Part shown: piece by piece, positions 20,165 through 48,319 of the stretch
Layout: the number at the start of each line of letters is the position of its first letter
Position numbering within the stretch: the stretch's first letter is position 1
Origin: Acanthopagrus schlegelii
Lineage: Eukaryota
DNA: 64,000 nucleotides
Direction: 5' to 3'
NCBI GenBank assembly: GCA_041753875.1
Contig: CM085480.1
Coordinates: forward strand, 5,735,958-5,799,957
Program-made: the position numbers and the translations under genes
The notes under the pieces: model-generated
The model's database searches: none
Told to the model about the DNA's origin: nothing
Seen by the model: only the letters and a program-made list of their open reading frames with translations

Positions 20165-20290
20165 ATGGCGGTGTTTGAGAACTGCTCCATCCTTCTGGAG
20201 CTGAAGAATGTGCCTTTCAAGCAGAAAAGGAGGTTGAAGTCGGCAATAACAGACAATGGAGGAAACATTTGCTTTGTGGTCCATCAACAG
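20165..20290 (+). CDS. parp4: PARP4 exon 1 (start codon; BRCT N-terminus)
   Basis: ATG at 20165 lies directly after the acceptor cag. Translation MAVFENCSILLELKNVPFKQKRRLKSAITDNGGNICFVVHQQ, donor caacag|gtcaga, phase 0. Confidence 0.8.
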
Positions 20291-29200: not shown

Positions 29201-32200
29201 TTCAAAATAATATGGTGGGAGCTGTGGAATTAACTCTGCTCAAAAGGTAGAAAACCTACATCTACCAGAATGCACTGCAGTCTAATAAACCCTCCCGCTG
29301 ATGGATGACGTACTGCAAGTTGGGTGGTGCTTGGTTTTGGCTTGGAGTCCGTTTTGAAACAGGAAACAGTAAAGCAGTCAGCAAGTACCAAATAATATCA
29401 CATGACAACTAAACAATTATTCAAAGATGTTCCTGAAAACATTTTCATTTTTAAGTGAAAAATAGAGCAGTAACAGGATTTTGGTTTATGATGTGTCAGC
29501 ACTGCGTAGTTCAGACAGTTTGATCAGAACTTAGTGAGAGGACATGGAGAGCGTCTTAACATTTTACACATGTTGTAAATGATGTAAACCCAAGAAGCTT
29601 TATTTAGTCCACATAGAATCTACTATATATTGTATGGAGCCTAAAATATAAAGAATAATATAACTATACTGAATACACAATGCATAAATTGTAACTATGA
29701 AATGCGTAGAGACACAAATGAGCAATCTTATGAAATGTACTGTTACCTCAGTAACACACACTCTTTGGCTTTATTGTGTGTATGTGGTGTGTGTGTGTTA
29801 TGTTTGGTGTGTGTGTGTAGAGCTCAGCTCAGAGGAGAACGGGGTTGAAAGCATTAACAACCCTCTGGAGGGAGTGACGGCTGGACTGTTGGACAGCTCT
29901 GGTCAGCAGATCCCTCTGCAGGCTGTCCATGTGAAGTGCAAACTGATGGACCTGCTTTCTCAGGTGATAGAAAATAAACCAGCTCATTCAAGTCTTTATA
30001 TTTTGCTGTGATGACATCCTGGTGATCAAATGGTTGATTTAATTTGATATCAACCTCCAAAAGTTCATCAGACAACTGGATGTAAATATTTCACAGGCTG
30101 CTGAGTTTACTGGTTCATATCTCTCTGACAGTACATGTCTGTCTTCTGTCTGTAAAGTCTCTCTTCTCTGTTGTCCTCTTCCAGGTCGTCATTTTCCAAA
30201 AATACACCAACACGAGCTCTGTGCCTATTGAAGCCAAGTATGTCTTCCCGTTGGATGATTCTGCAGCAGTGTGTGGATTTGAAGCTTTCATCAATGGGAA
30301 ACATGTGGTGGGACAGGTAACCTAACCAACCTATACTCATCACAGATTTTTTTTCCTCCCGTTAACATATTTCTTTACTGTGTTATATTTTTCATGATGG
30401 CTTTTGTTTATTAGTCATCTTTATTCTCAGCAGTTTGCTGCTACACTATATAAAATGTCCTCATCTGTAAATGGAACTGAAGAAAACAGAAAGGTTAAAT
30501 TTGATATTCTCACAGAAGATTCAAACATTTTTTTAGGCAATTTTAGATAGTCATTGTGTAATGCCAGGTAGCAAACTTCACAGGATAAAACTAATATTAT
30601 GGATTATTTGCAAAACCAATCTAACCTGTTTTTTGTGTCTGTTTGGATCTCAGGTGAAGGAGAAAGAGACTGCTCGCAAAGAGTACAAGCAGGCTATTGA
30701 GAAAGGCCACGGAGCCTATCTCATGGACCAGGACGCTCCTGTACGTCCACCATCTGCACTCGACCAGACACACATCATCATACTGATTCAAATTCTTATT
30801 ATAGTCTGTATTATAGTTTATATCATAATCCATTTACACAGTGTTTCATTAATAACATAAAATCATTATAAGTATACATGTATTATAATATATATATATA
30901 TAGCACAATTAATCTACTCATTTTAATGATTCTATAGAGTGAAATCTTCACATTTTAGAAAGCAGAGACCAACAATTGTTTGACAGCTTTGTTTAAAGAA
31001 ATGACTCAAGGAATGAATCATATATCAGAATAGTTGGCAACAGTGTTCTTTCGATTGATAAATCTAGGAATCGATTTATCGTTGCAGTGCTTATTCTATA
31101 TTTTGTCTTTCGTTTTTTACTTTCAGCAAAATCCTCAATGTGGCTTAACACTGTATAATTTAACAATTGTATAGGTTTGGCTGTAGACGAGAATTTGACA
31201 AAGAACTAAAATACACTGATGCTTGCTGCGATAGTTAATTAAACGCAGCACATTACTTGCTGACCTCAACTAAAGTTGACACCACCATCAAATATGAACT
31301 GATTTAAGATGCAGATTATATAACATTAATCAGTTTTCACAATGACACAATAGCCTACCATCCAAACTGTAGAACAGCTCATACTGGGAGAAAATGACAT
31401 TGTCCGTGAGAAGGTGAATTTTACTCTGGAACCACGGGCACCAAAAATAGTCCCCCCCCACTATGCAACTCTATTTGTAGACTTGTTTTGATGTTATTTT
31501 CATGCTCACTACAGGATGTGTTCACCATCAGTGTGGGCAATCTGCCTTCCGGTGCGACTGTCCTCATTAAAGTTACCTTTGTGTCTGAGCTGATCATCAA
31601 GGACGGGAGTATTCTCTTCTCCCTGCCCGGGAGTGTGGCTCCATGGCAGGAGAGTGCAGCGCTCAACCAGACTACACAGGTAAGGAAAACCTGGACAGAA
31701 GGTGTGACAAAACCTAAAACCAATCCCACCTCAGAGAATTACTTTCTATTCTGTAGGTTGTCAATAGTGTGATAACTGGCAAAATGTCTCTTAATTAGTG
31801 AAGGGTGGGAAAAAAAACTTAAAAACCTACTTTCCTACGGTTTAGGCAATGCTTTTATTTGCATCATCGTGATTTATTTTATTTCTCCTTCTGAATTTTC
31901 TTTTGGTTGATGTTTCACATGCAATTTGGAGTTGTAAAGTGTTATGAGATAGCAACACATATGAATGGTGGGACTTCTCAGCAGTGTTTGGTCTTTAGTT
32001 AAATTTCCTGTACTTTTAATCATATTTTTTGCATGAAGGATTCATCACAGGAGAAGTGTCCCTGTTTTTCTGTTTCTATATCTGTTTATTTATTTATTTT
32101 TCTGCATCAGGCTTGTGTGGCTGGTACAGAATATTCCCTACCTGTAGAGTGTAGTGGGAATACAAGGATATTGGATCTGATAGCATGTGAGGGACTCTCC

Positions 32201-35200
32201 ATCGAGTGAACTGACGATCGAATTTTTTATTGTCTGCCTTTTGTGTTTTTCCATCACTCAACAGGTCACTGTGGAGAAGGTGTGTGTGACCGATGAGGCA
32301 GCCAGCAAGAGGTGAGCTGTAATATGTGTTCTTACTGTTTCCTTAAATTTGACTGAAGTGCTGAATGTTCAGTAGTGTACTGTGGTGAAGCACTGGATTG
32401 ATAGACTAGTTGATCCACAAAAAAAATAATCAAAATTAGTTAACCAGCTTCTTATAAAGCATAACATTTGTATAGAAAAGCATGTTGTCTCTCTAGTGTC
32501 TGCCTTATATTGCGTATTATGCACAGTTAAATACGTGCAGTTAGAGGGTGTGTTCAATGTAGTTTTTTGATTTCCTCAGAGAGTTCACTCTTGACATGTC
32601 AGTTGAGATGCCATATGAGATCACCAGCCTGGAATGCATCACTCACCAAATCAAGATTAAGGTAATTTGGGTGTTAATTGAGAAGTCCATCAGCAGAGAC
32701 TTTGTGATTAACAAAATCAGATGATTTCCCTCTGCTTCCTTTTACTGCATAATTAAATTATAAGTTTTAAGTTTTGGTTATGGCATCTGGGATTTAGATC
32801 TGTCATTAGGTTTGATGATATTTACAAAAAGCTGCATTATGGAAGCTATGTTTGTTTGTTTACTCTGTTTAAAAAGTCATAATTATGAGTGAACATTTCC
32901 TCTTTTTTACCCTTGTTCGTGTGTGATCCCACAGAGAACCGACTGCAAGGCAGTGGTGAGTGTGCTGCCAGGAGAGGTTATGGGTCCAGATGGTTTCCAG
33001 CTGTTGGTCACTCTATCTGAGGTCCACCTGCCCAGGATGTGGGTGGAGAAACACCCAAGCAACGACAGCCAGGTCTGTCTGTCACATGATTATGATTCTG
33101 GGCTGTATAAATAAAATTGATTTGATCTGAATTTGAACCATCTCTCTCTCTCTCCTTTAGGCCTGCATGTTAGTTTTCTATCCAGACTTTGATGTCAACT
33201 CCAGTTCAGCATCTGATGAAGTCGTCCTGCTGCTGGACACATCTGAGTCTATGAAGGGAGAGTCTCTCTGCACGGCGCAGAGAATCGCCCTGCAGGTCCT
33301 CAAAACCCTCGACAAGAAGCTCAGAGTCAATGTCATTTTGTTTGGCACAGGTCAGTTTCTAGAGCTTTAAAGAAGGCACAGACATAGTGAAACTGTCTCA
33401 CCAATAACGAGGAAGATACAATCAAAGATGACAGATGGTGAAAGGATTTAGTTTGACTGCATAAATAATAAAGAACTGAACTGAAAAGAGATCCTTCATG
33501 CATTATGGAGAGAGCTGCATGACACAGTCCATGAGTAAAGGAATCAAACCAGTCCTTCTTTGGTAATCTCCTATACAAGAATGTCATCCGCTTCATGTCT
33601 CTGTCTGCCGTTTATTTTCATCCCTGGATTCAATGTTCTGTTCAGAGCTGCTGTAAATCTCCTCTGCTCTGTATCCCCTCCTTCAGTTTGATATCTGTTG
33701 GTCTAAGAGGCTGAGTTTTTTTTATCCAGCTATGTTCACCAGGAGTCAGCTGAGCCTTGTTGTCCACAGAGACTCTTCCCTTGTGGTCCAAATTTCTGAT
33801 CGAGCCAGAATTCCATTAGCTAATAGGTCAACTTAGCTCCATGACAAACCAAGCCAACTTCCGGATTGCCATTATTCGTACAGCGAAAAAGAGCTACATT
33901 GAGCACCAGTTAGTGGTTATGCTGTCACCTGAAGTTTTGGAGATACATTTTAATAGGTGGCCATATTTTACAAGTTACACTTTTAAACCTGGATACAGAA
34001 GTTAGTTGTCACTAACCTGACTGTTTTTGTCTGTCAGATCACACAGACGTTTTCCTGACAGCTCAACCGCTTGTTAAAGGTCGGCAAGCAGCAGAAAGCT
34101 TCATCAGGGTGAGTTGTGATGGACACATTCTTTATATTGTGGTTTAACCTTGAAGCCGTTGTTATAAGGAATATTCTTGCTGTAGAGCTTTGTGAAGCAA
34201 GCATATATTGTGCAACTGCATAACAAGCTTTATAAAATCTTTAACTATAAAATCTACCATGTACTATATTCTGAAAAGAATCTGATCCTATGAGAAAGAG
34301 AAATATCAACCATTAGTATTTCTTCCTATATATTTATTTTGTGATTACATTTCATCACCATATAATAATATATTGAAAATAATGGCGGATTCAGATTACA
34401 ACATACAGAATTATGCTATATTATATGAAAAAATGATCTTCTATTAAAAATCATTTCATACCTGGTCTGTGTGGACAGTTCATCCTAGAGGCATAATAAA
34501 GACTTAGAGGAACAGCTGTCAGATAAACGTTTGGTCTCTAACAGTAATGTTTGGTTGATGTGTTAGCTTGTAGTCAGTCGTTCTCCAGCCTGTTTGTCTG
34601 TCTTGTTAACCTAGCTGCTTGTTAACCTAGATAGTACATAGCCTATATTTCTCTCTTTTTTAATCAACAGCCACCTCCAGCGCTGCTCTGTGACTCTGTG
34701 CCTGAAAAAACTGAGACTCCCTTTAACTCTAAAATATGCAACATTTGCTTCCAGGGGAGCAGGACCACGGACCTCACTGAGGGTCCGAGGTCCACCCCCT
34801 GTAGTCTCACGAAATGTATCATGTAATGCATTTGTAATAGTTTGTTACCAAGTTAAGCCAGTGTGGAGCTCCTATGGAATTAGCTGAAACAACTGTATCA
34901 GTGTCAGTATTGCCACAGGTGTGCAGCCTTGCAGAGGAAGATATTGTTTGTGTCAGAAATGTGTTATTTGTAACTAAGTCGGAGGCTGACATATTAGAAT
35001 GTTATAAACTATATTTATTGAATGCAGCATATGCCTGTGTGTTCTCAAAGCTCTGCTCCTCTTCCTTTTATCAGTGCCTTAACCCAGTAGGGGGCAGCAC
35101 TGAGCTGTGGAGGCCTCTGCGAGCTCTCAGCCTGCTGCCTCCATCCCAAGGTGTCAGGAACCTGCTGCTGCTGTCAGACGGCCACATCCAGAACGCAGAG

Positions 35201-36768
35201 CTCACCTTGCAGCTGCTCAGAGACAATGTTCAGCACAGCCGCCTCTTCACCTGCGGCCTCAGGTCTGAATGTGTTGAAGGCTCAGAGCTCCAAATGCCAG
35301 AAATCACAAAATGGTCATTTTAGCTTTGCTCTTTAGCTCAGCCTTAAATCAAGACAATAAAAACTACAGTTTTAGTTGCACGTTGTGGGTCAAAGGTCGT
35401 CTGAGTTTTTGCCTCAATCGTTAAACAACTACTGTACCTTTACTGATGAAAATCTATTTATAGTTAAGTTACATTTAGTCACATTTGTTCTTTACAGACT
35501 CACCTGATGTTTGCCCTAAAAACTTGTCATTTCAGCCCAACAGCCAATCGGCACATGTTGAGAGCCCTTGCCCAGTCCGGGGGCGGAGCCTTTGAATTTT
35601 TTGACACAAAAACCAAACACAACTGGGCAGAGAAGGTGAGTGCTAATTAATCACAGGTAACGTCAACAGTATACTCAGATTAAATGTTCTTTTATCAAGT
35701 GTTGTGTGAGGCAGCAGAAATGAGGCGAGGTGGGTCACTATTTTTGGTTTTTAGTTTTTTCATCATCTTTTTTCACGCACTCATTTGTCACTTACTATGC
35801 AGATAAAAAGAAAAAAAAGTCTAAATATAAGATTTAAACACTTTTCCTGCATTGTTGCAATGCCTTCACATTTAATATAGTGCCAGATCAGTGAGATCCG
35901 TATATAAAAGCCCTAATGCATGACCACGACTATGTTTCGATCTGCTCGCCTCTGTTATTCTGTCTCTAAATATACAAGGACTCATACGTTGCCACATTGC
36001 ACACATTAAAACCATTATAAAGTAGATCGGTCCAATCTTAATGCATTTCAAGTGTCATAAAATGTGACATAAATAAACTTTCACATAGAATGAAATAACC
36101 CTGATTCCTCTGTTTACCTTTTGTCTGTTTTGGCTGCAGGTAGCACGTCAGGTGAAGCGCATGGCATCTCCCGGCTGCAGCTCAGTGTCAGTAAAGTGGC
36201 AGCAGTTCAACCCGACAGCCCCTCCTCCTATACAAGCCCCCAAGCAGCTCAATGCTCTGTTCAGTGACTCTCACACACTGGTTTATGGTTTTGTGCCGCA
36301 CTGCACTCAGGTACATAGTTCACATAAACTGAATTACAGCTGTACTTGCGCTTGGAGATAGTTTAATGTTTGTGTGAGTGTGTGTATTATTCTGATTCTT
36401 AGTTAGGGCTGCAACAAGCCTTTTTTTTTTAATCGGTGATCAATTTCTCTGCCTTTTGATTCTTTGGACTGTAAAATATGAGAAACTTTTGGAAAAACTG
36501 GTATCACAGTTTCCCACAGCTCTAGCTGACATCTTCAAATTGCTTGTTTTCTTTTAACGAAAATTCAACGCATAACGATATGAGATTTAAAATGATATAA
36601 AAAAACAATAAAACATCAAATCCTGATATTTAAAAAGCTGTGAACCAGATTTGAGTGTTTAATGACTCAAATAACCCCTCAGGCCACACTGCTTGGAAAT
36701 CTGAGTGGTCAGGAGCTCAAAACCATGGTGTCGACCACTGAGCTGCAGAAGACCAGGGGCACAGTAAG

Positions 36769-36845
<77 letters not shown>

Positions 36846-39800
36846 AGTCACACAAACACACACAGTCACACGTAACAGTCTCAACAGAACTGTAATACTG
36901 ACCTACACAACACACACATCATAACTCCTTTACCCTGCACATACGGATGATTATGACGTGTTTTGATGTGTGCTCAGTTTGTCCACAAGCTCACAGCAAG
37001 GGCCCTCATAAGGGATTACGAAGACGGAAGCCTGGCCCCTGATGAAGCTGAACATGAGGTGTGTTTGTGTGTATCACTGAGTGAGGCCAGAGGAAAGCCA
37101 CCTCGATTCACACCTGTGGTCTGAGCACTACGTGTTTAACGTGGCGTTCCGCTTTTCCAGGGGAAGAAAGCAGAGCTGAAGAGCTTCATCATCAAGTTAA
37201 GCAAAGAGTTCTCCATCCTGTCACAGTTCACCAGCTTTGTGGCCATCGAGGAAAGGGTATACTGTCTGCTCAAAGTCCAACCCATACACACTCTCACTTT
37301 ACAGCCTGGTGTCATATTTTGTCTCCCAACTTTACACATCTAATTTGTTTCAGGATTCAGAGCAGGCAGAGGGCTTCACAGACATCCCCAAGTTGATCGC
37401 AGAGGAAGATGTGGACTTCCTTCCCTACATCAGCTGGATTACTCCTAAGCGTCATGGAAAATGTCTAGATTATACTGACCCTGGAGAATCTGACGATGAA
37501 GAGGAAGATGATGATATGGGTTTTGGCCTTCTGTCACCTAGTTCACAATCATATATGCCTGGAGATGGTCTAAAATCTCCAATTTGTCTTGAAAATGTGG
37601 AATGGGAAGATGAAGATGGGGAAGAGAGCTTCTGGGAGTGTTACGATGCAGTTGAAGAATGCTCGATGCAGTCTTCACCCACAGTAAGCTCCTCATGCAC
37701 AAACTGCAGCTGGACATGTTTTTGGATTGCATTTTTAGATGAAGCTACTATTTTTAATGCAAGGACAGAATAAAACTCTCAACACATCCTAAATTAACAG
37801 CACATCACTGATATCACACGATATCCATGATATTCTGTAAAGTAAAAATATGGTATCACCATCCGTCCTGAGTAATCCAGTTATAAGTGGACAGCTTTAA
37901 GCCTGTCAGCACACACCTAGCATTAGGATAAGTATCTGCATCTGCTGCCTGTGATCAGATCTCACTGTCCCACTCTCACATATTATGCAAATAACACACG
38001 TATGTCACTGGAACAGCTCTGTTTTTCACACAAAGAAGTAAATATCATTTGCCAAACTTGGAGACCGAGGAGGTCCAAATAGTTAAGATTTTGTTGAAGT
38101 CAGCTTATCACCAAAATCATGATGTTTCCCCTACCTCTACCACTCACAAAGTATATGCTTTTTGTAAGAAAAATACTTTTGAGCCTATTCCTAACTCATC
38201 CAAACTGACACTTTGGGATTGTAGGATGGGTCGGCAACCGTCAGTTTTTGACGAGTTGGGAAACCCAGAGCGTCATTATGTGACCAGTTTGGAATGACAC
38301 TCAAAAATCAACTTTATCTCAATAGCAAAAGGGAATCTGGGGACTTTCCTTAAAGTCAAATAGGTAGCCTGTATTGGTTACTGTTACACTGTTTTGAGAA
38401 TTTGATATGTTTATCTCCAACTCAATGCCTTCTGTCATAGATTTAGTGTAACTGGTGAAATCAGTTAAGATGCACTTTAGACACAGAAGCAGACAGGCTG
38501 CTACACTGATGCTGCCACAGACTGACACTTTTTGTACAAAGAAACAAACCACTTTGTGTTTTGATTTAATGCTGACTTTACAAAAAGAGATCTATGATTA
38601 AGAATTTACTGTAGCTGTTTTGCAGAGTTACGTTATAGTTAAGTTATTGTTTCTCCTCACTCAACAACTTGAAGTCTGTCCGTTTCAGCGGAGCCAACCA
38701 CTGAACCAGAGCCCACTATATTACCAGCGTGCTGACAAACATCTGCTGCTAACATTAGCAGAATAGGAGAGCCCGTAAATGTGACAGACATTGATTCAGA
38801 CTGTATGTGATCTATTCTGCGCATTGTGGCTTTCTCTTCCTCTTCATGTTTCGCAGAGGATGTCAGTTGAGTAGGCAGTCCTTCACATGTGGTCCAGGAC
38901 AGACATGTGTACACACTGCTAAAAGGTGGACCATGTCACCTCTAAATGTGGTTTGAGTGAAAAGATCTCAAAAGGCCTAAATCACACTGCCGTCTCGAAG
39001 CAGGAATCTTTTCAAACATATATCCCGCCTCCCCATCTGTAGGAAAGTTACAGAGGCAGAATCCCCCATTCACCTCTGATCTGCCAGCAGAGGTAGTAAC
39101 AAAACCACAACAGAGGCAAGATGACTTCTATGTGAAAGGGTAACAGACTGGACACACTTGATGCTTGTGTATCGCGGGATGGCTGCTTTGCTGGGCTGCT
39201 GCTCACTCACGCCTATGTATCCACACAGGCAGCATTGTCGGTATGATGTCAGATGACTGTCTACCGGTCATTTTTAGGTCTATGGATTTTTTGCCAAGAA
39301 TCACAAGTGTATGGCAGTAAAAATAACAAGATTCGGAATAATAATAAAAATATTCCGAATCTGTAGATGAAGCAATGCAGCAGCCTCTCTTGACACGCAC
39401 GTGAGAAGCGCTGCATCCAGTGTGGCTGGTCTAACCTGTTAACACGGATGCTGAAATGAAAAGCGAGAGGTAACGCAAAGCAGCAGCGCTTGCACAGCAT
39501 CCAGTGTGTCCAGCCTGTGAGCCAAGACAGGGCAGGAGTGTGACAATGTGCTGGTGTTCACAGTCTGACAAATAAACTGATCCTTCATCAACAAATGTCC
39601 CAAACTTAAACCCACAAAGTAACGTGACAAGACCAAACAACAGCTAGTAACAGCATCCCTCCTCGCAAGTGAAAGTCAGACAGGCGTGATTTAGAGCAAA
39701 AAAAGAAAGGAACTTTGTCACTTTACACGATGCATGCTGGTCAGGATCTCAATCATAACACTTTAGAGCAGCAGCCATATGATTATAAACAGTCAGCAGT

Positions 39801-40138
39801 TTACATCTAGGTAAATGATCTAGTAGATGTGTGACCACAAAAGACATTCTGACTCTTTTTTTTGTTTTGTTTTTCTCTCCTTTCTAGGGTGCCTCGCCTT
39901 TTGCAGAAATGGATTATGAATGTCCACCGAGTGAACCTTCACATGCAGAAGCCCACACCTCTCCAGTCCTTCGTCGTCCCCGTCCTATCATATGTTTGGG
40001 ACTCCCAACTCCTCCTCCTCCTCCTGACATTTATCGCTTTTCACCCTTAAGTCGTCGTCTTCCTCTTCCTCCTCGTCTTCCTGCTCCTCACACTTCTTCT
40101 TCTGCATTCTCATTCGGTTCTCCTCCTCCTCCTCCTCC

Positions 40139-40170
<32 letters not shown>

Positions 40171-40282
40171 TTCTTGGTGCTCCTCCTCCTCCTCATCCTC
40201 CCACTTCTTCCTCTGCATTCTCAATTGGTCCTCCTCCTCCTCCTCTTCCTCACACTTCTTCTGCATTCTCAATTGGTCCTCC

Positions 40283-40314
<32 letters not shown>

Positions 40315-43300
40315 TTCTTGGTGCTCCTCCTCCTCCTCCTCCCACTTCTTCCTCTGCATTCTCAATTGGTCCTCCTCCTCCTCCTCCTCTTCATCCTCCT
40401 GGTCTTCCTGCTTTCATTCTTTCTCAGAGAGTCGGATTTGGTGCTACGCCTCGTCCTGTTTGTGGATTTTCTGCACCTTCAGATGGGCTTTTATTTGGCA
40501 GCGCTCTAACTCCAGTCAGTCACTCAGTGGAGCAACAAACCCAGCAAATGTCTTGGCAGCCACAGTTAGAAGTTGATCGTCGAGTCGTTTCATCTACCCA
40601 GGAATACAGACACAAGGGAAAAAAAATGAGGCATGCAGATACTAAGGGTTATCAAAAGTACGCTGAAGAGTTACATGTCACAGAAGGAGGATCAGTACGG
40701 TCTTCCCTAGCCTCAATCTTAGGCCCAGTTGGGTCCACAGCTGTCTCCAGCTTACTCCACAGACATAAAGAGCTGAGTCGGCCACAGCGGTTTCTTCGGA
40801 TGACTAACTGTGGTGTCAGGGACTCTGACGTCATAGAGGGATCTCCTGAGAGATCAGAAGCCCCTTCCCCCAAAACACATAACATGCTGGGTGATACTGA
40901 AATTCAGAAGGATTTGATTCGATTCGATTCAATTCCAATGGGTGGAAGTGAACCTGCTGTTGATGAAGGTGAATATATGTTCATGGTGCAACGATTTAAA
41001 CAAAAAGCAAAGACCATTCCAGTGAGAAGCCGTGCTCAGACGTCCCCTTCAATGTTACAACAACCTTCTGAGTGAGTACATTTTTATATATATTCAGTTA
41101 GAAAACCCAGATTATTGCTTTTATTACTAAGTCATGTGTATGTTATTAGTTATTTGTGTATGTGCATGTTTACATGTCGAAGAAAGAGAAAGCATCAGTG
41201 TGTTTTTTGGATTAACAGCATGTGCCTGTGTTTTTTTTGTTTGTTTTTTTATGAACGGTTTTGTCAATATTCACCACATGTTTCTGCTCTGATCTCATTT
41301 CAGGTCAGCGGATCCTGAAGTACCGAAGCTCAGATGGACCAAGATCTTCCAGATGCAGCAATCAGTGAGATTTGATTTTATTGGGTCTTCATTAATGTTG
41401 CCACTGAACAGATGAAAGTAAACATAGCTGAAACTAAAAACATAAACCAGGGCTTTATCCTTTTTCCTGTTGAAACAATCCTAGTGCTCTGATATTGTGC
41501 ATGCTGGTGTGCTGGTTTGCCAAGATCAAACTTCTTCCTTCTGACAAGTTAGAATGCTTGCTATGGGGAAAGTTGAACAATTCTGATCCTTTGATTCTTT
41601 TTTTTGTAATTTGAATCATATTTTATTTTTCTCGAAGATCACTAGCTGTCAGAGAGGCTGCATCACACTTTGTTAAAACACTGATGCCATTTCTTAAAGG
41701 CAGTTTCTCTGAGCAGAGCCACTTTGGTTTGCTGGTTTCAGAGTTCATTTTTGTCTACTTTCAATTTATTTTACGGATGCTTTTATCCAAAACAACTTCC
41801 AGCACTGTTTCTTGTTTGTTGTTTTAAGGAAACTACATGCTGAGAGTTCTTGGGGAATTAGGGACAAGTTCTTACCACTTTGTATGGGAAATGATCACGT
41901 GTCTGTGATTTGCAGGAGGGCTACTGGGAGTTAACCACAGAGCTGGGAGAATGCATCAATGTCGATGTATATTGCTTTGCCAACGTGTTCCTGAAAAGCA
42001 GGGGCATCCAATCTCTAGGTGAGAACTCTCGAGACCTGTTTCAGGCCGTCACAGTGGCAATAGCTTTGTCATTACACATCATTTTGAACTATTCCTAACA
42101 TCTCACTGGTACCTTAAGATAGACAGAAACATACACATCATCCCCTCAATAAATATTTGATAAACAGTATTTGAATTGTGTGAATTAACAGAGATCAGGT
42201 TGCTCTGAAAACAGTGACTGTCTGGGAGTTTCAAGTGCATCATATTGAACCTTCAGGTGTAAATGTTTTGTCTCTATTCATGAAGAGTTTCATGTTTTAC
42301 ATCATTAAAGCAGCAACAAGGAAGTTCTTTTTTTTTATCGATTCTGGCGGCCCCTGTGGACAAAGTGAAACAAAGTTAACTAAGTCAATTGTTACCAGTT
42401 AAAAATTCTGGTTGAAACTGGTTGAAAAAATTAACAAACCTGTTTCCCTGTCGAAACTCTAAAGATATAGTCATTCAAACCACAAGGCTGTGTTTTTTTT
42501 AGTAATTAATTAAAACATGCTGGAAAGTTTCATATTGAATGTAAAATCATTATTCAAAGAAGGAAGTTGTTACAAGACAACACAGATGACTGGCGGCACT
42601 TCAAAACTGCCACACAAGCTCCCGTGCAATGGCTCTGCATTATTGTCAGCATTGTCAGCCAGAAAGGAGGTGAAGGTCATCGTCATTTTTCTCAAATCAC
42701 AAACAACATTTTCAGTTTTTATTTGATTTGTTCAAGTTTGGAGACCTCAGTGGGATGAAAAAACGACGGTCGTGTCGGCTGTCTAACACTTGGTCCAGAC
42801 TGAAATCTCCACAGCTGAAGAGCTGGATATGGATTGCCCTTACATGTTGTAAAGACACTGACGGTCCCCAGAGGTTGATTCCTACTGAATGTAGTGATTT
42901 TCCTCTATCATCACAGCATTAGTGGTTGCTGAAATATCTTTTCAAACTCTGGATGGATGGACACAAACATTCACATTGCCATCAGGATCGATGGTGCAAA
43001 CTTCAATCCGCTTCATGTTGTGCATGTGTGTGACGTAGGCGCGAAGGCCCATGCGGACATCCTGAGGCTGGTGGCTACTCTTCTGGTGCTGCAGCTGATG
43101 AGGGTGGAGAAGCTGGAGGAAGGCAAACTGCTCCGCACCCTCTTCTGCCTGGACGACTCCTCTCAGCCCAGGTCTGTCTAACACTGGGACAAAACACAGT
43201 GAACACGGTGCGCTAACTTTGGGGGGTATTATTGGAAACACGCCATTTAGTTAACATTTGAGGACAAATGCTCAGCAATACTCACATGCCGTTCAATGAG

Positions 43301-43781
43301 ATCTCACGTGTGGCGTTTAAAAAATAAAAATAAAAATGGGATGACTCAAGACAGAAACATGAAGGCCTTGTATTGTCCGAAGAGGAAATAACCAGCATTG
43401 GAAGTACTAGCACTTTATTTATCCATGTCCTTAAAATGCCTTGTGTCTTTTATAAAACTTCTTAAAATCAGAATAAAGCTTTCATTTATGTAATTCTCTC
43501 TGCTCTGGATGATTTTGTAAACCCTGCGGTCTCTCGGTGGCTACCTCTTGTAACGACTGACTCTTTGTTTCAGGCCTGAGCGGTGGGAGGAGGTGAAGAG
43601 AGCAGTGGACTGGGTCTGCTGGGCTGACCGGCAGTACCCATGTGTCTACAGCCGGCTGGAGTTCGGTCTGAGCTGGGAGTCCTCCACACGTCAGCTGCTG
43701 GGCTATGAAGGACTCCCTCCTTCCTCACCTCTGTGTGGGCTGAACCTGCGGAGAACCCCTGCCCCATTACTGGTCCACTGA
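20165..43781 (+). CDS. parp4: PARP4 / vault PARP gene, genomic span of the coding region (34 coding exons, about 1876 aa predicted)
   Basis: The spliced translation is collinear with human PARP4 along its whole length. Examples: BRCT 'MAVFENCSILLELKNVPFKQKRRL...'; catalytic 'LGKYRALRC', 'GLLLPRVG', 'GSGIYF', 'DDEYVVYSPDQVKLKYVVQFS'; VIT 'VVIFQKYTNTSSVPIEAKYVFPLDDSAAVCGFEAFINGKHVVGQ'; 'TDCKAVVSV...LPRMWVEKHP'; vWA 'VVLLLDTSESM'; 'SVSVKWQQFNP', 'TMVSTTELQKT', 'DVDFLPYISW'; C-terminus 'GYWELTTELG...SRGIQSLG'. Every junction is GT-AG with matching phase. Confidence 0.85.
20507..20744 (+). CDS. parp4: PARP4 exon 2 (BRCT)
   Basis: Acceptor cccacag|tgc. Translation CSLIVTNDVSNLSTNRLRSIQKYQTPVVGVDYVYRCVERGDLLPVDGYRLDV..., donor caag|gtatta, phase 1 out. 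Confidence 0.8.
22215..22329 (+). CDS. parp4: PARP4 exon 3 (linker)
   Basis: Acceptor ctgtag|ggtcgg, donor ttcag|gtgtga. The phase (1 in, 2 out) is the only one that links exons 2 and 4. Translation SEVPTSKAAAEPSKIPINPATQGAGTPHSSKNVLGKF. Confidence 0.6.
23358..23436 (+). CDS. parp4: PARP4 exon 4
   Basis: Translation IYTETDSDLPPYPDNFQVAKFSIFEK matches human '...DFEVAKYNTLEK'. Acceptor ttcgcag|g, donor gaaaag|gtaaag. Confidence 0.75.
23529..23633 (+). CDS. parp4: PARP4 exon 5
   Basis: Translation IKSNTWCVLELQSLRRENGSQYRVVRYWKEDILSK, donor ccaag|gtatga, phase 0/0. Confidence 0.7.
24336..24497 (+). CDS. parp4: PARP4 exon 6
   Basis: Translation QKMEVRDMLVFLSTSEDAVEVYKELRDTLQASGLQLRSS... The acceptor is at 24335 or 24338; both are in frame. 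Donor cagcag|gtccga. Confidence 0.7.
25133..25270 (+). CDS. parp4: PARP4 exon 7
   Basis: Translation LLLEKKLNTGSVSQEVGTFVELLWTEALGCLSNILRVSVDKLSLND; human has '...VEMIWAEALGHL...ISLND'. Confidence 0.8.
25409..25573 (+). CDS. parp4: PARP4 exon 8 (acceptor preceded by a (GT)n run)
   Basis: Translation VSRVEGLLLQAQRKLKEANHAEVACLLDEVHTLLPLKTRSPPSAKLISQLLDLCQ, donor gtcag|gtaaca. Confidence 0.75.
26365..26516 (+). CDS. parp4: PARP4 exon 9 (start of catalytic domain)
   Basis: Translation LIRDVLNVSEMTLRSPVPSCLGKYRALRCSIDTV...; human has 'LIRDMVNV...LAKYRALRCKIEHV'. Confidence 0.8.
26840..26950. repeat. MITE-like repeat, copy 2 of 2
   Basis: See the copy at 14690-14830. Confidence 0.35.
27123..27356 (+). 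mobile_element. 5'-truncated copy (3' end only) of the same LINE family, in sense orientation inside PARP4 intron 9, ending in (GGAT)5
   Basis: It encodes 'ACPAARRPRGRPRTRWSDYVTQLAWERLGI...VSGVREVWVSLLRQL', almost identical to the C-terminus of the 52-55 kb element, followed by ggataagcgg...gatggatggatggatgg. Confidence 0.8.
27800..27931 (+). CDS. parp4: PARP4 exon 10 (catalytic; H-S-S motif)
   Basis: Translation KVQIQQVLRVSRGVELQTFKSDLGNIKPLLHSSSPSNFVGLLSR; human has 'IFRVGRVNE...LLHGSPVQNIVGILCR'. Confidence 0.8.
28188..28286 (+). CDS. parp4: PARP4 exon 11 (catalytic; Tyr of the H-Y-E triad)
   Basis: Translation GLLLPRVGVEHHGIDRTDAGNLGSGIYFGDAVG. Confidence 0.8.
28430..28613 (+). CDS. parp4: PARP4 exon 12 (catalytic)
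   Basis: Translation TSLKYSKACVTDGSRLLLVCDVALGHCWDIHKRDPTLTQAPEGHHSVHGVRRTPNTHSEFE. Confidence 0.8.
29036..29180 (+). CDS. parp4: PARP4 exon 13 (catalytic; Glu of the H-Y-E triad)
   Basis: Translation DDEYVVYSPDQVKLKYVVQFSIEGDQLKEFSPD... Confidence 0.8.
29821..29963 (+). CDS. parp4: PARP4 exon 14
   Basis: Translation LSSEENGVESINNPLEGVTAGLLDSSGQQIPLQAVHVKCKLMDLLSQ. The acceptor follows a GT-rich tract. Confidence 0.75.
30185..30316 (+). CDS. parp4: PARP4 exon 15 (VIT)
   Basis: Translation VVIFQKYTNTSSVPIEAKYVFPLDDSAAVCGFEAFINGKHVVGQ, near-identical to the human VIT segment. Confidence 0.85.
30654..30740 (+). CDS. parp4: PARP4 exon 16 (VIT)
   Basis: Translation VKEKETARKEYKQAIEKGHGAYLMDQDAP. 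Confidence 0.85.
31515..31679 (+). CDS. parp4: PARP4 exon 17 (VIT)
   Basis: Translation DVFTISVGNLPSGATVLIKVTFVSELIIKDGSILFSLPGSVAPWQESAALNQTTQ. Confidence 0.85.
32265..32311 (+). CDS. parp4: PARP4 exon 18 (47-nt micro-exon)
   Basis: Translation VTVEKVCVTDEAASK; human has DTVEKICIKEIGTKQ. Phase 0 in, 2 out. Confidence 0.7.
32580..32661 (+). CDS. parp4: PARP4 exon 19
   Basis: Translation EFTLDMSVEMPYEITSLECITHQIKIK. Confidence 0.75.
32935..33072 (+). CDS. parp4: PARP4 exon 20
   Basis: Translation RTDCKAVVSVLPGEVMGPDGFQLLVTLSEVHLPRMWVEKHPSNDSQ; human has KRTDCKAVIST...LPRMWVEKHPEKESE. Confidence 0.85.
33161..33350 (+). CDS. parp4: PARP4 exon 21 (vWA start)
   Basis: Translation ACMLVFYPDFDVNSSSASDEVVLLLDTSESMKGESLCTAQRIALQVLKTLDKKLRVNVILFGT. 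Confidence 0.85.
34038..34108 (+). CDS. parp4: PARP4 exon 22 (vWA)
   Basis: Translation HTDVFLTAQPLVKGRQAAESFIR. Confidence 0.7.
35075..35262 (+). CDS. parp4: PARP4 exon 23 (vWA)
   Basis: Translation CLNPVGGSTELWRPLRALSLLPPSQGVRNLLLLSDGHIQNAELTLQLLRDNVQHSRLFTCGL. Confidence 0.85.
35536..35635 (+). CDS. parp4: PARP4 exon 24 (vWA)
   Basis: Translation PTANRHMLRALAQSGGGAFEFFDTKTKHNWAEK. Confidence 0.85.
36140..36310 (+). CDS. parp4: PARP4 exon 25
   Basis: Translation VARQVKRMASPGCSSVSVKWQQFNPTAPPPIQAPKQLNALFSDSHTLVYGFVPHCTQ. Confidence 0.85.
36683..36763 (+). CDS. parp4: PARP4 exon 26
   Basis: Translation ATLLGNLSGQELKTMVSTTELQKTRGT, donor aca|gtaaga. Confidence 0.8.
36772..36850. repeat. 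(CA)n about 35 units, starting about 9 nt after the PARP4 exon 26 donor
   Basis: Directly visible in the sequence. Confidence 0.95.
36978..37058 (+). CDS. parp4: PARP4 exon 27
   Basis: Translation FVHKLTARALIRDYEDGSLAPDEAEHE. Confidence 0.85.
37161..37256 (+). CDS. parp4: PARP4 exon 28
   Basis: Translation GKKAELKSFIIKLSKEFSILSQFTSFVAIEER. Confidence 0.85.
37354..37683 (+). CDS. parp4: PARP4 exon 29 (acidic, low-complexity)
   Basis: Translation DSEQAEGFTDIPKLIAEEDVDFLPYISWITPKRHGK...ESDDEEEDDDMGFGLL...EWEDEDGEESFWECYDAVEECSMQSSPT. The 3' boundary is less certain, since the ORF reads on through the donor. Confidence 0.65.
39888..41071 (+). CDS. parp4: PARP4 exon 30 (giant 1.18-kb exon; proline-rich tandem repeats)
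   Basis: Acceptor tttctag|ggtgcc, donor ga|gtgagt. The translation contains four to five copies of TSSSAFSIGPPPPPPPP...HLLLGAPPPP. Confidence 0.7.
41304..41364 (+). CDS. parp4: PARP4 exon 31
   Basis: Translation SADPEVPKLRWTKIFQMQQS. Phase 2 in, 0 out; this is the only frame that joins exons 30 and 32. Confidence 0.6.
41916..42018 (+). CDS. parp4: PARP4 exon 32 (MVP-interacting C-terminal region)
   Basis: Translation EGYWELTTELGECINVDVYCFANVFLKSRGIQSL; human has DGFWKLTPELG...KQKGIQSLG. Confidence 0.85.
43039..43171 (+). CDS. parp4: PARP4 exon 33
   Basis: Translation AKAHADILRLVATLLVLQLMRVEKLEEGKLLRTLFCLDDSSQP; human has LIATMLVLQFIRTRLEKEGIVFKSLMKMDD. Confidence 0.8.
43574..43781 (+). CDS. 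parp4: PARP4 exon 34 (terminal; stop TGA 43779-43781)
   Basis: Translation PERWEEVKRAVDWVCWADRQYPCVYSRLEFGLSWESSTRQLLGYEGLPPSSPLCGLNLRRTPAPLLVH*; human has EWVRRTEGQYPSICPRLELGNDWDSATKQLLG. Confidence 0.85.
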
Positions 43782-44472: not shown

Positions 44473-46837
44473 GTTTGAATGAATAAATTAATGAATGTAT
44501 GCATGTCTGTGACAAAGCCTTCAGGCAGGGACACTGTAACTATGATCATGATAGGTAACAGCGCATCTTCACAAATTAGACCACAACTGAAAATGATCCA
44601 TTAGCCTCCAGAAGGCTAAAGAAGTCTGTGTTGTGTGTCATTACTACTGTTCAAGACTTTCGGTAGTATTACCAAATAAGGTCAGAGTAATGGAGGAATC
44701 GGATGATTGACCTTAGGCATGTATGTGTGTCATCAGATTACTGATTAGTCATCTCAACGCCGTTTATTGAGTGCAAATAAACCAAAAACACTCCAATTAA
44801 TGGCCAACTGCTCTGTCTCCTGAGCCATAGCTGCACCAAGATATACAAGCACCTGCAATGGTCTGTTATCACCGAATTTTATGATTTCTGTTGTGCTGCC
44901 CTGGAATGGCCTGCACACACATTCCTTCAACCATTCTAGAGAAAACCAGGATGAATACCTGGAAAATGTTGTGCGAGGCAAGTGTGCTTTGACAAGATTT
45001 AGCTCAAGGAACTGAAACAAATGGCTGTTAAAATATGAGGCTGCTACACCACTTCTCTACACCACCACTTTTTTTTACAGCTGAAGAAATGTGATAATGA
45101 GCCTTATCAGAAGTATTTGGCACTTTGACTCTTCACTTAGTCAACAGCAGCAAAATGACCACATCACAAACTCATTAGAAGTCAGTGAATCTGTAAGGAA
45201 TCTCTAAACATCATGGTTCCTCATCTTGTTTGTCTGTGGAAGAAATCTTAAAGAGGTCATATTATGGACATGTTTGGGTTCATACTTTATTTAGGGGTCC
45301 TAGTAGAATAGGTTTACGTATTTAAAAAAAAGAAGAAAAAAAACATTATTGTGTGGTGAATTTCTGCAGCATCCTTTACACAGGATATAGCCAAAATAAA
45401 AGCAGAGTTGGGCGGGTTGTGCCCCACAAGGTTTGGTGATCTAAAATATCTCCACTACAGCAGTAGCAAGTGTATGTCTGCTGACTGACTGGAGTGTATA
45501 TATTTTGTGATAAATACATACAAATATATATTTATATAACACCTGTTACACAGTACAGCACGTACGTTACAGAGGTAAAGGCTCGACTCCAAACCAGGTG
45601 TTTCAGGCAGTGCAGGAGCAGTGTTTTCTGTGCTGCATAACACAATAATGGAAAGGCAAAACCCAAAAAGCGTGATATGACCTCCTTGAAAGATACAGCT
45701 TATTGAATGATGAAATAAAAATTAAAAAAAGAAAGATGTTTTTTTCCTCGCTAACAGTTTTCCTATGGAACACTGTCTGACTGAGTGACAAATGGAGTGC
45801 TGAGGCGGTTTTCCTCTGCTTCGAGTCTTTAATAGTATTTAACTCTCACTACTGTGAAGTGAAGCCAGTCAGTCAAACCATTGCGGTAACAGCCATGAAA
45901 AAAAATGTTTAAATCTTAGATGTCATAAAATAGTTCCTAAATAAATTGTTTTTAAATGCATTCGTTCCTGTAGTAGTCTATTCTTCATAGCATATACAGT
46001 CTAAATGTCTATTTTTATTCCAGTGTCATTAGGAGGATGACTTTGTAGCAGGAACATTGGTCAGTTCCAGGCATTTATGTGCTCAGCGGTATATAGTATA
46101 GTATATTGTTGTATTTGTCGTCATCGGCTTCAGCATCATTCAGCAGGCAAATTGTTCTGGAAATTAAACATGCAAATAAAAACAGAAACAGTTGACAGGA
46201 CATTACACACAAAGTTAAGAAATAATTAAAGCGAACGTCCGCTGTGACAATTTCTAGAATGTGAGCCACTAGTTTAAAGAAAACGATATAATAGAAGGTG
46301 TACCAAATTAAAATAAAAGCAGTTTATGGTTTTTGTTTTCGAACTTTAGCTGCTATATACATGGAATAAACATGCAAATGAATTTAACTCTCTTTTAAAT
46401 GAATGTGAGGCCACTACTTTGCAAGTTAAGAAATGAATAAAAAATGTAAAGCTCAAATGCGTCACATAAAAATGGGTTCTGGAGGTTCCCCACACATTCA
46501 TTCACTCCTGTGTTGAGGTAGTTTAAAGTCAGTGATCCAACATGAAATAGTCCATTAATTCCTTTTGAAATATATATGCAATGTAATGCAACCATTTCAA
46601 GGTTTTACAAAAGTGCCAATTGAAAAGGACCACAGACTTATTTGGACATGTTCATGTGCCATCACACAGATGTGGTGGTATTAAAGGTATTGAGCTGGTG
46701 GTGGATGTTTCCTGTGCAAACTATTTTCATCACCTCTAAAAACTGATGACTTCCTGAAAACCGTGAGAGACGTTGAATCCACCATCATCATATACATGCG
46801 CTGACCGTTTAGGAGAGAGCTGGTTACCTTTTGAGCG

Positions 46838-46907
46838 ATGGAGGAGATCTATGCAAATGTTGATTACAACAAGCCTGTCGACCCAACACCTTCAACAAAT
46901 CAGACAG
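46838..46907 (+). CDS. C-type lectin receptor exon 1 (cytoplasmic tail MEEIYANVDYNKPVDPTPSTNQT)
   Basis: The ATG leads to a strong donor acag|gtaaga. The acidic-YxxV motif resembles a hemITAM/ITIM. Only the frame joining to exon 2 gives a sensible type-II receptor. Confidence 0.55.
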
Positions 46908-47001
46908 GTAAGAATGCTCACTCACACACATGGGTTGTGCATATTGATGTTGTGTATTATCCTGTGTTGTGATCATGATATCATGTCCTCTCTGTGTTCA
47001 G

Positions 47002-47103
47002 GTCCCAGGAGCTCAGAGAGGAGGCTTCATGGAGCCGTGGTTCTCTGTCTGGGGCTGCTCAGTGTTGTCCTGCTGGTTGGACTCATCAGCCTCGGTGTCA
47101 CCT
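47002..47103 (+). CDS. C-type lectin receptor exon 2 (transmembrane segment)
   Basis: Translation GPRSSERRLHGAVVLCLGLLSVVLLVGLISLGVT, a basic stop-transfer followed by about 23 hydrophobic residues. Acceptor ttcag|gt, donor acct|gtgagt. Confidence 0.65.
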
Positions 47104-47512
47104 GTGAGTCTGTTTTTCATCAGTCAGTGTCGGGTGAACTTGTGAGAGATGCTCGTGTCTTTATGAATATGATTTTACAGCCATGGTAAATATATTCCAG
47201 CAGCTAACGCAGCAAAATGAAATATTTGAACATCTGTGGATGATGAAGAGCTGAACCATGTTTGAATTCAGGTGCAGGTTGCTCAGTATTTAGATATTTG
47301 CTGGGGAAACATCAGAGCATATTATTATAAAGACTGTACATCACTGTTTGGACTTCAAATTCATTTCAGCCCTCAGGTTGATATTTCATAGACTGCATGA
47401 GCAGAATGAACATCTTCCTCTGTCAGGACAAATTAGGATGATTTTGACTCAAATATAGAACCTTTAGTCAGTATTGGTATCAATGCATGAGTGAATCTTG
47501 ATTTAATTTCAG

Positions 47513-47680
47513 ACTGGGATTTAGCTGCAGAACACTCCACTGTCAAAGCCAACCTGACGGAGCGTCTCCAGGCCAGTAATGACAAGCTGTCCTCTGTGTC
47601 TGAAGAGAGAGACCTGCTGAATGCCAACCTCACTTCAGTGTCCAAAGAGCTGGACAGACTTCAGAGTTTGTCCAAACAGA
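47513..47680 (+). CDS. C-type lectin receptor exon 3 (coiled-coil neck)
   Basis: Translation WDLAAEHSTVKANLTERLQASNDKLSSVSEERDLLNANLTSVSKELDRLQSLSKQ, a heptad-like pattern typical of CLEC4/CD209 necks. Confidence 0.65.
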
Positions 47681-48319
47681 GTGAGTGCTCGCCTGCCTGT
47701 GTGTGTTCTGCACAGCTGTCTGTTAACATGAAGGACAGGAGCTGCCACGGCCTCATTTATAGAACACCTATATACAGAGACTGTGCTGATCAGACACTTG
47801 TATCCCACTCTCACTTCTGTCAGTTACATTTATGTACCCATGACTTTATTCATTCTTTCAATTCATTCAAACAGGAATATATTTAAGTTAAGAAACAACA
47901 GCGATGATTGACAGTTAGAAACACTGGCTGGAGTGGGACTTCTCCGTCCAGTCTGCACCCTGCTTAAAGTCCCCTCAAAGGTGATAGTTAATGTTTGTTT
48001 TTGAGAAAAACAGTTGCATGGGGTTCAAAGAGGTTGGATCAACTATTCAAAACATCTTAATGATTCAACAGTGTGCAAATCTTGGTATCAATATATTTTA
48101 TTCAAAACATTATTGTCATTTAAAAATATCGTTCTGTTTTTGATGATGTTATTTTGTTCCATTCTGGTTTTAATATATTGTCCATGATATAAGAAATATT
48201 AATTAGCACATCAGTTAAAAACATTTTCATCCAAAGAACATACATTCAATCCTCAACCTCCCAAACTGAACAACATGGACCTTGTCTGATCTTTAACGTC
48301 ACTTTGATGCTTTTTCCAG

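Follow-up and report, generated by a model that had tools for sequence, protein, structure and literature searches.

A hierarchical in-frame proline-rich tandem repeat in the largest PARP4 exon of a sparid fish

The stretch analyzed here, hereafter the window, is a 64,000-nucleotide (nt) segment of contig CM085480.1 from Acanthopagrus schlegelii, and all positions are counted from its first letter. Positions 39888-41071 of its forward strand form the largest coding exon of PARP4, the gene for the vault poly-ADP-ribose polymerase, and this exon contains an in-frame tandem array rich in proline codons. With a probability of roughly 80%, we read the exon as a disordered PARP4 linker that carries a hierarchical, slippage-prone proline repeat and evolves fast, as human exon 30 does. 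In this reading, (CCT)n tracts encode polyproline inside units of ~48 nt, a block of three such units (~144 nt) has been duplicated recently, and copy number would be altered by replication slippage and unequal exchange; frameshifts would be purged, since the downstream MVP-interaction domain (MVP-ID), the anchor of PARP4 on the major vault protein (MVP), must stay in frame. The polyproline-II stretches would stiffen a flexible tether whose length and sequence would be free to vary, and this tether would give the catalytic and ITIH-like parts freedom to move within the vault. The exon is a species-specific instance of a PARP4 exon known to be hypervariable, and annotated proteins of sister species already contain this repeat. 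Its discovery value is accordingly small: the gene is annotated in the sister species, and publications on mammals and birds have described the exon as hypervariable.

The exon within PARP4

PARP4 spans positions 20165-43781 of the forward strand, from Met1 at 20165 to a stop codon that ends at 43781. Based on tblastn searches, residues 1-1844 of the RefSeq PARP4 of Acanthopagrus latus are colinear with window positions 20165-43778. Upstream of the large exon, Pfam matches along the forward-strand open reading frame (ORF) fragments follow the order BRCT_2, PARP catalytic and VIT; on the exon fragment at 28413-28673, the PARP domain reached 41.7 bits, the cut-off being 26.7, and BRCT_2 and a second PARP fragment stayed below the cut-off because exons were scanned singly. 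The N-terminal BRCT and PARP region is covered by colinear tblastn matches to residues 1-611 of RefSeq PARP4, and the central ITIH-like region (VIT plus vWA) by the VIT fragment match together with tblastn matches to A. latus residues 612-1322, which lie in order over 29820-37692 at 80-100% identity. The C-terminal MVP-ID (PF26156, PARP4_MVP-ID) is encoded by window exons within 41304-43781 and is one residue off that of A. latus. Additionally, a search with the translated exon brought up P0001 (82% identity) and P0002 (49%), both genomic ORFs, and a transcript-derived protein with PF26156, P0003. An exact look-up of the 388-aa ORF of the window returned no record. P0001 belongs to a cluster of at least 90% identity with the RefSeq PARP4 of A. 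latus, XP_036965614.1, and P0003 to a cluster with the RefSeq PARP4 of Sparus aurata, XP_030285037.1. The exon belongs to PARP4, an identity that an earlier note on this DNA had proposed and that the Pfam order, the colinearity with RefSeq A. latus and the downstream MVP-ID exons all uphold. The composition of the window (~40% GC, (CA)n microsatellites, a non-LTR retrotransposon (LTR, long terminal repeat) and short exons parted by introns) is of the vertebrate, teleost type.

The large exon sits between the ITIH-like region and the MVP-ID, fifth from last among the coding exons. The exon and its surroundings are arranged as follows, with the basis of each assignment in brackets:

37300-37683, forward strand: preceding PARP4 exon, acidic, ending in ...ECSMQSSPT, with a GTAAGC donor at 37684 (sequence, alignment)
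39855-39887, forward strand: polypyrimidine tract and AG acceptor, the AG at 39886-39887 (sequence; junction SPT/GASPF in the RefSeq A. latus model)
39888-41071, forward strand: largest PARP4 coding exon, 1184 nt, i.e., 394 codons plus 2 nt, 5' phase 0 (splice signals, sole open frame)
41072-41077, forward strand: GTGAGT donor (sequence; its junction to 41304 matches a spliced contig of a related sparid, L001)
41304-41364, forward strand: next exon, in which the MVP-ID begins (spliced contig, translation)
41916-42018, forward strand: MVP-ID exon (spliced contig, translation)
43039-43171, forward strand: MVP-ID exon (spliced contig, translation)
43574-43781, forward strand: last PARP4 coding exon, with the stop codon ending at 43781 (translation)

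The exon limits given in the earlier note, 39888 and 41071, proved exact, with AG immediately before the first, GTGAGT immediately after the second and one open frame between them. Its wording of a giant exon was too strong. The exon measures 1184 nt versus at most ~390 nt for the other PARP4 exons in the window.

Exactly one frame is open across all 394 codons and, joined to the four downstream exons, it runs uninterrupted through the MVP-ID to the stop at 43781. The RefSeq A. latus PARP4 reads SPT/GASPF...QQPSE/SADPEV across the exon boundaries. Transcript support for the donor comes from the related sparid: the contig L001 (Logan, 1295 nt, run SRR17287635, with the Illumina adapter still on) aligns in five blocks on the window whose gaps are introns, and its splice join falls exactly at 41071/41304. 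Between the window and the orthologue of an A. latus-like species, all six exon indels are multiples of three (3, 3, 9, 21, 27 and 75 nt), versus two of five in the introns.

It is extremely improbable that the region, or the repeat in it, is non-coding in vivo, i.e., a retained intron or an 'exitron' spliced from PARP4 mRNA. Two short Ensembl isoforms of S. aurata without the exon would fit such a case; nevertheless, these isoforms look fragmentary, and three sparids, namely A. latus, S. aurata and Pagrus major, have full-length RefSeq models that all carry the exon in this frame. The UniProt entry that corresponds to the S. aurata model contains it, too. Moreover, the 394-codon ORF is conserved with in-frame indels only, and all human and rhesus expressed sequence tags contain the human counterpart, exon 30 (PMC4038475). 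The two S. aurata isoforms (A0A671Z3J8 and A0A671Z3J2; P0148, P0175) read through the preceding donor (SPT/VSPSRTNCSW...) and then jump to the last exon, losing most of the MVP-ID. We considered exon skipping as their origin and rejected it, as they look like fragmentary read-through models.

The spurious antisense ORF mentioned in the earlier note is present, as listed below, and a second ORF of this kind, encoding poly-Leu, lies in the +2 frame at 40174-40509. Both are compositional by-products; in the antisense one, (CCT)n is read as GAG/GAA.

39988-40365, reverse strand: poly-Glu ORF of 125 aa, inside the conserved sense exon; not a gene

Anatomy and length variation of the repeat

The repeat consists of four full units of the form TSS(S)AFS[FI]G-polyproline and two degenerate units of the form HLLLGA-polyproline, about six 48-nt units in all, from which the frame runs on to the PARP4 stop; the in-frame tandem proline-rich repeats seen by the earlier note are thus confirmed. 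The parts of the exon are:

40009-40412, forward strand: pyrimidine-rich repeat core, 86% C+T, encoding an array that is 47% proline (composition, codon counts, Tandem Repeats Finder)
40089-40163, forward strand: unit 1, HTSSSAFSFGS-P14, holding (CCT)15 (translation)
40164-40202, forward strand: unit 2, degenerate, HLLLGA-P4-HPP (translation), which aligns with HTLSSTFLLGPTLVPPPHP of a more distant sparid
40203-40250, forward strand: unit 3, TSSSAFSIG-P5 (40203-40244), then LP (translation)
40251-40307, forward strand: unit 4, HTSSAFSIG-P10, with the (CCT)10 run (translation)
40308-40343, forward strand: unit 5, degenerate, HLLLGA-P6 (translation)
40344-40388, forward strand: unit 6, TSSSAFSIG-P6, then LHPPGLPAF (translation)
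40136-40400, forward strand: higher-order duplication of ~144 nt (141-144) (self-alignment)
40413-41071, forward strand: rest of the exon, non-repetitive, fast-evolving and predicted to be disordered (nonsynonymous substitution rate divided by the synonymous one, dN/dS; divergence; AlphaFold2 predicted local distance difference test, pLDDT, of ~33)

At the lowest level, the core contains seven pure (CCT)n runs of 4-15 units (45, 32, 20, 19, 17, 17 and 15 nt) parted by motif-coding spacers of 24-30 nt; the longest, (CCT)15, occupies 40120-40164, and the second, (CCT)10, occupies 40277-40308. CCT makes up 59 of the 63 proline codons of the core. The sequence (CCT)5 occurs 21 times in the window, every time inside the exon, while shuffles predict 0.01 occurrences. 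Tandem Repeats Finder reported a period of 48 in 5.6 copies (score, 241) and a period of 3 in 90.7 copies with 71% matches. With seven runs, spacers between them and a period-3 match of 71% over the array, the earlier description as a near-perfect (CCT)n array was overstated. The encoded polyproline runs, seven in number and 4-14 residues long, are spaced 6-12 residues apart and often have G or A before them and L/H-P after them. At the highest level, the copies 40136-40259 and 40277-40400 (124 nt each) are 90% identical and share a stretch of 60 identical positions out of 60 at an offset of 144. This duplication is the 48-codon block that the A. latus-like orthologue is without. The array is hierarchical, with levels of 3, 48 and ~144 nt, and the duplication of the ~144-nt three-unit block is recent.

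A sequence with a perfect 60-nt identity at offset 144 and a pure 45-nt (CCT)15 tract is hard for short reads, and the copy number in the window could have been expanded or collapsed during assembly, so that four plus two units would not be the true allele. We consider such an artefact very doubtful: the two 124-nt copies are 90% and not 100% identical, the frame is intact to the PARP4 stop, the array is only ~400 nt long, and independently assembled relatives show the same unit types.

Comparison with the PARP4 of related species, which the earlier note had suggested as a check, showed that A. latus XP_036965614.1 and S. aurata XP_030285037.1 have the orthologous exon, identical in boundaries and frame and likewise with the SSAFS[FI]G-polyproline motif, and that copy number differs. 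A. latus has two full units and one degenerate unit, with a first tract of P4-P7, and S. aurata has four full units; the window, for comparison, has four full and two degenerate units and a first tract of P14. Relative to the A. latus-like species, whose introns are 2.0% diverged, the window carries the additional 48-codon block, seven more prolines in the first tract and smaller in-frame indels. The source, with introns ~98% identical to A. latus-like contigs, is probably a congener; P. major was rejected as the source because its exon sequence differs from that of the window.

The contigs of two sister species were taken from ENA metagenome assemblies of different samples (ERZ13706696-ERZ13706763; L002, L004, L005 and L006 for the first, L003 and L007 for the second). 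The four A. latus-like contigs, to which the window introns are ~98% identical, are 99.3-99.7% identical to one another over 2.3-4.8 kb, and the two contigs of the second sparid are 99.7% identical. Within each of the two sets, orthologous (CCT)n tracts vary by ±1 unit, and in one contig the PARP4 exon is shortened by an in-frame deletion of 9 nt; the intronic indels within the sets are only of 1 nt, in mononucleotide runs. Additionally, the A. latus reference has P4 where the A. latus-like contigs show P6 or P7. Since near-identical contigs of sister species differ by ±1 CCT, it is very plausible, judging from these orthologous tracts, that the array is length-polymorphic, which lends indirect support to the polymorphism anticipated in the earlier note. 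As a side observation, sparid host DNA occurs across a series of metagenome assemblies (ERZ13706696-ERZ13706763).

Evolutionary rate, disorder and competing explanations

Evolution is faster in the exon than in the introns next to it. Of 754 sites in its non-repeat parts, 44 (5.8%) distinguish the window from the A. latus-like species, versus 86 of 4367 (2.0%) in the five flanking introns, which lie in 37684-39887 and 41072-43573 (Fisher p=2.6e-8); the other PARP4 exons are 0-1.6% diverged. Taken piecewise, the non-repeat parts are 5.2-9.3% diverged, with 5.2% in the post-repeat part (40413-41071). The nonsynonymous sites compared with the introns give an odds ratio of 2.9 (p=1.3e-5), and the substitutions are spread over both lineages (19 vs 13). 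The Nei-Gojobori estimates are:

Post-repeat exon vs close relative: dN 0.058, dS 0.057, dN/dS 1.03
Post-repeat exon vs more distant sparid: dN 0.33, dS 0.206, dN/dS 1.6 (p=0.03)
MVP-ID exons vs more distant sparid: dN 0.038, dS 0.193, dN/dS 0.2

The dN/dS values within the repeat core were discarded as meaningless because positional homology is lost there and dS is homogenized by slippage.

In mammals and birds, the largest PARP4 exon (human exon 30) was described by Daugherty et al. (2014, PLoS Genet; PMC4038475) as a ~360-aa disordered region under positive selection; six mammal and bird pairs gave dN/dS values of 1.07-2.31. As noted there, the region varies strongly in sequence and length across vertebrates; fish were outside that study. 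Suskiewicz et al. (2023; PMC10450202) described a disordered link that joins the ITIH-like region to the MVP-ID, and long disordered regions enable the mobility of PARP4 inside the vault lumen (PMC12280208). Like the fish exon, human exon 30 is the largest, lies fifth from last among the coding exons between the ITIH-like/vWA region and the MVP-ID, has ~350-390 codons, is predicted to be disordered, and has a dN/dS of at least 1 in a gene that is otherwise under purifying selection. In contrast to the fish exon, it is rich in S, P, A and F, has proline runs of no more than two residues, and is without (CCT)n and without an evident tandem array; the different composition noted earlier for the human region therefore holds. 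A BLASTP comparison of human exon 30, taken from Alignment S1 of PMC4038475, with the window exon gave no significant similarity (best E=0.29). Because no sequence homology is detectable, orthology to human exon 30 is a matter of position and exon rank only. For the same reason, i.e., the non-significant BLASTP result, a likeness between the fish TSSSAFSFG and the primate TSTSSLFG was dropped as statistically unsupported.

The exon is predicted to encode an intrinsically disordered segment. AlphaFold2 returned for it a mean pLDDT of 42.7 and a predicted template-modelling score of 0.13, with one 7-residue helix only and the polyproline tract as the sole confident part. A Pfam scan of the exon translation found no family, and a PDB sequence search with the exon returned chance polyproline matches only (E of at least 0.5). 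An exhaustive HMMER profile search of 1.84 billion representatives yielded two sparid ORFs and, beyond these, only a bacterial repeat protein (E=4.8e-4), a spurious match; in the searches made, homology of the exon beyond Sparidae was not detectable. A literature search found no description of a fish PARP4 repeat.

The acceleration would be adaptive, and not mutational, under the reading of a linker that evolves fast like human exon 30. Several points weigh against that reading. The exon dS to the close relative, 0.057, is ~2.7-fold above the introns at 0.020 (p ~0.005-0.015), and therefore a mutational hot spot at this locus, together with relaxed constraint, could account for much of the acceleration with no need for positive selection. 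The dN/dS above 1 comes from a simple Nei-Gojobori count (p=0.03), the within-species indels from short-read metagenome assemblies at 6-9x, and the disorder prediction from a shallow alignment of three sequences. The tether function is inferred from mammalian work, and the transcript contig L001, from a relative, spans only the last ~270 nt of the exon, short of both repeat and acceptor.

Such a hot spot, placed around the polypyrimidine tract and combined with relaxed constraint, is a serious rival to positive selection. In its full form, i.e., a linker that need only be long, disordered and in frame, with a polypyrimidine/(CCT)n tract that would be mutagenic through slippage, may be prone to form triplexes, and drifts quickly in point divergence and copy number while its repeats have no adaptive or binding role, a neutral by-product is a real possibility, which we nevertheless find doubtful. 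The dN/dS of ~1.0 and the raised dS against the close relative suit it, as does the near-identity of the motif copies of the window at synonymous positions too, which points to recent duplication and not to long constraint; other fish carry unrelated units, and homology of the exon is not detectable beyond Sparidae. On the other side, against the more distant sparid the exon dS of 0.206 is close to the 0.193 of neighbouring exons while its dN of 0.33 is higher, the six vertebrate pairs cited above all exceed a dN/dS of 1, and the SSAFS[FI]G-type motif is kept at 2-4 copies in four sparid lineages while the rest of the exon is 53% identical.

Among 120 teleost PARP4 proteins recovered, polyproline tracts are common in the linker, but their repeat units differ from lineage to lineage:

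Acanthopagrus, Sparus: SSAFS[FI]G, 2-4 copies
Pagrus: SYSALSLG / SFSAISIG, a variant form
Scatophagus: GSSLFGQSxGLASPAPPPPP, about 14 copies
Micropterus dolomieu: 31-aa unit, 12 copies
Genypterus: GLSSGPPPPPPP, about 9 copies
Centroberyx, Diretmus: none, 0 copies

Since human exon 30 is without polyproline and other percomorphs have unrelated units in the same exon, these sequences support independent repeat expansions between lineages, as the earlier note had suggested. In percomorphs, PARP4 as a whole is between ~1530 and 2100 aa long, and the big Scatophagus, M. dolomieu and Genypterus arrays listed above are those of P0070, P0088 and P0185.

The array resembles coding micro- and minisatellites (in-frame variable number tandem repeats) in that its units are multiples of three, its polyamino-acid tract uses one codon and its copy number shifts among close relatives and, in the orthologous tracts of two sister species, between contigs from different samples. 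Unlike a typical repeat of this class, it is short (~400 nt) and hierarchical. With multiple polyproline tracts on short linkers, it also resembles the FH1 region of formins and other proline-rich ligand arrays. A docking module, FH1-like or a ligand array that brings profilin or proteins with SH3, WW or GYF domains to the vault and its PARP4, would agree with the number and spacing of the seven polyproline runs and with the independent origin, in many percomorph PARP4s, of arrays built as a hydrophobic motif, A or S, and P5-8, which reach 14 copies in Scatophagus. Nevertheless, human exon 30 is without polyproline, which indicates that such a role is not ancestral to PARP4; the canonical EVH1 (FPPPP) and WW (PPxY) motifs are absent from the exon translation by direct reading; and slippage of poly-CCT alone could explain the recurrence. 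In contrast to formins, Pfam scans of the gene found neither FH2 nor a related domain beside the polyproline tracts, there is no actin-related domain, and the host protein is an enzyme of the vault lumen. The array does not qualify as FG-nucleoporin-like: in place of many FxFG/GLFG motifs it has only one FSFG plus three FSIG, and what separates them is polyproline and not hydrophilic, proline-poor sequence. Overall, a docking module appears decidedly unlikely. Hardly more likely, in our view, is the broader proposal that the motif-plus-polyproline modules of percomorph PARP4 are a convergently maintained functional array with its copy number under selection, and not slippage noise. If this were true, the percomorph arrays would be an FH1-like docking or length-tuning device within the lumen of the vault or, in a host-pathogen conflict, a decoy surface that varies.

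Significance and neighbouring features

The pattern in which the largest PARP4 exon evolves faster than neutral now includes a teleost lineage, the flanking introns serving as an internal neutral control. The percomorph form of this variability consists of lineage-specific in-frame tandem arrays. In practice, such arrays put assembly, gene prediction and orthology-based alignment at risk, many fish models being split or having dozens of isoforms at this place. The (CCT)15 tract would serve directly as a coding marker that is probably polymorphic, and copy number would be a natural variable if the hypothesis of a host-virus interface for this region were true.

The acidic exon at 37300-37683 (forward strand) encodes DDEEEDDDMGFG..., and its counterpart is tandemly duplicated in P. 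major. The acidic region (aa 1284-1482) is also where 35 predicted isoforms of Micropterus salmoides differ, which marks a second variable-repeat zone in the linker; splicing within the polyproline array had been considered for these isoforms and was rejected, given that their differences lie at this upstream region.

In many fish, the MVP-ID is annotated as a separate short 'hypothetical protein' (P0006, P0009, P0011, P0047), and one model of Trematomus bernacchii has it fused to a C-type lectin. It may be common for fish gene models to be interrupted at the low-complexity exon or behind it. Downstream of PARP4 in the window, ORFs at 46773-47886 (forward strand) encode a heptad-like, leucine-rich 'neck' sequence, with no Pfam match on the fragments tested; the C-type-lectin-like gene that is fused in the T. 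bernacchii model may begin with these ORFs.

Two further elements were observed in the window. A non-LTR retrotransposon at 52023-54859 (reverse strand) has 52-58% GC, and its Exo_endo_phos and RVT_1 ORFs are split over three frames. A compound microsatellite at 489-800 consists of (GAAA/GGAA)n followed by a long (GT/CA)n and gives rise to spurious ORFs on both strands.

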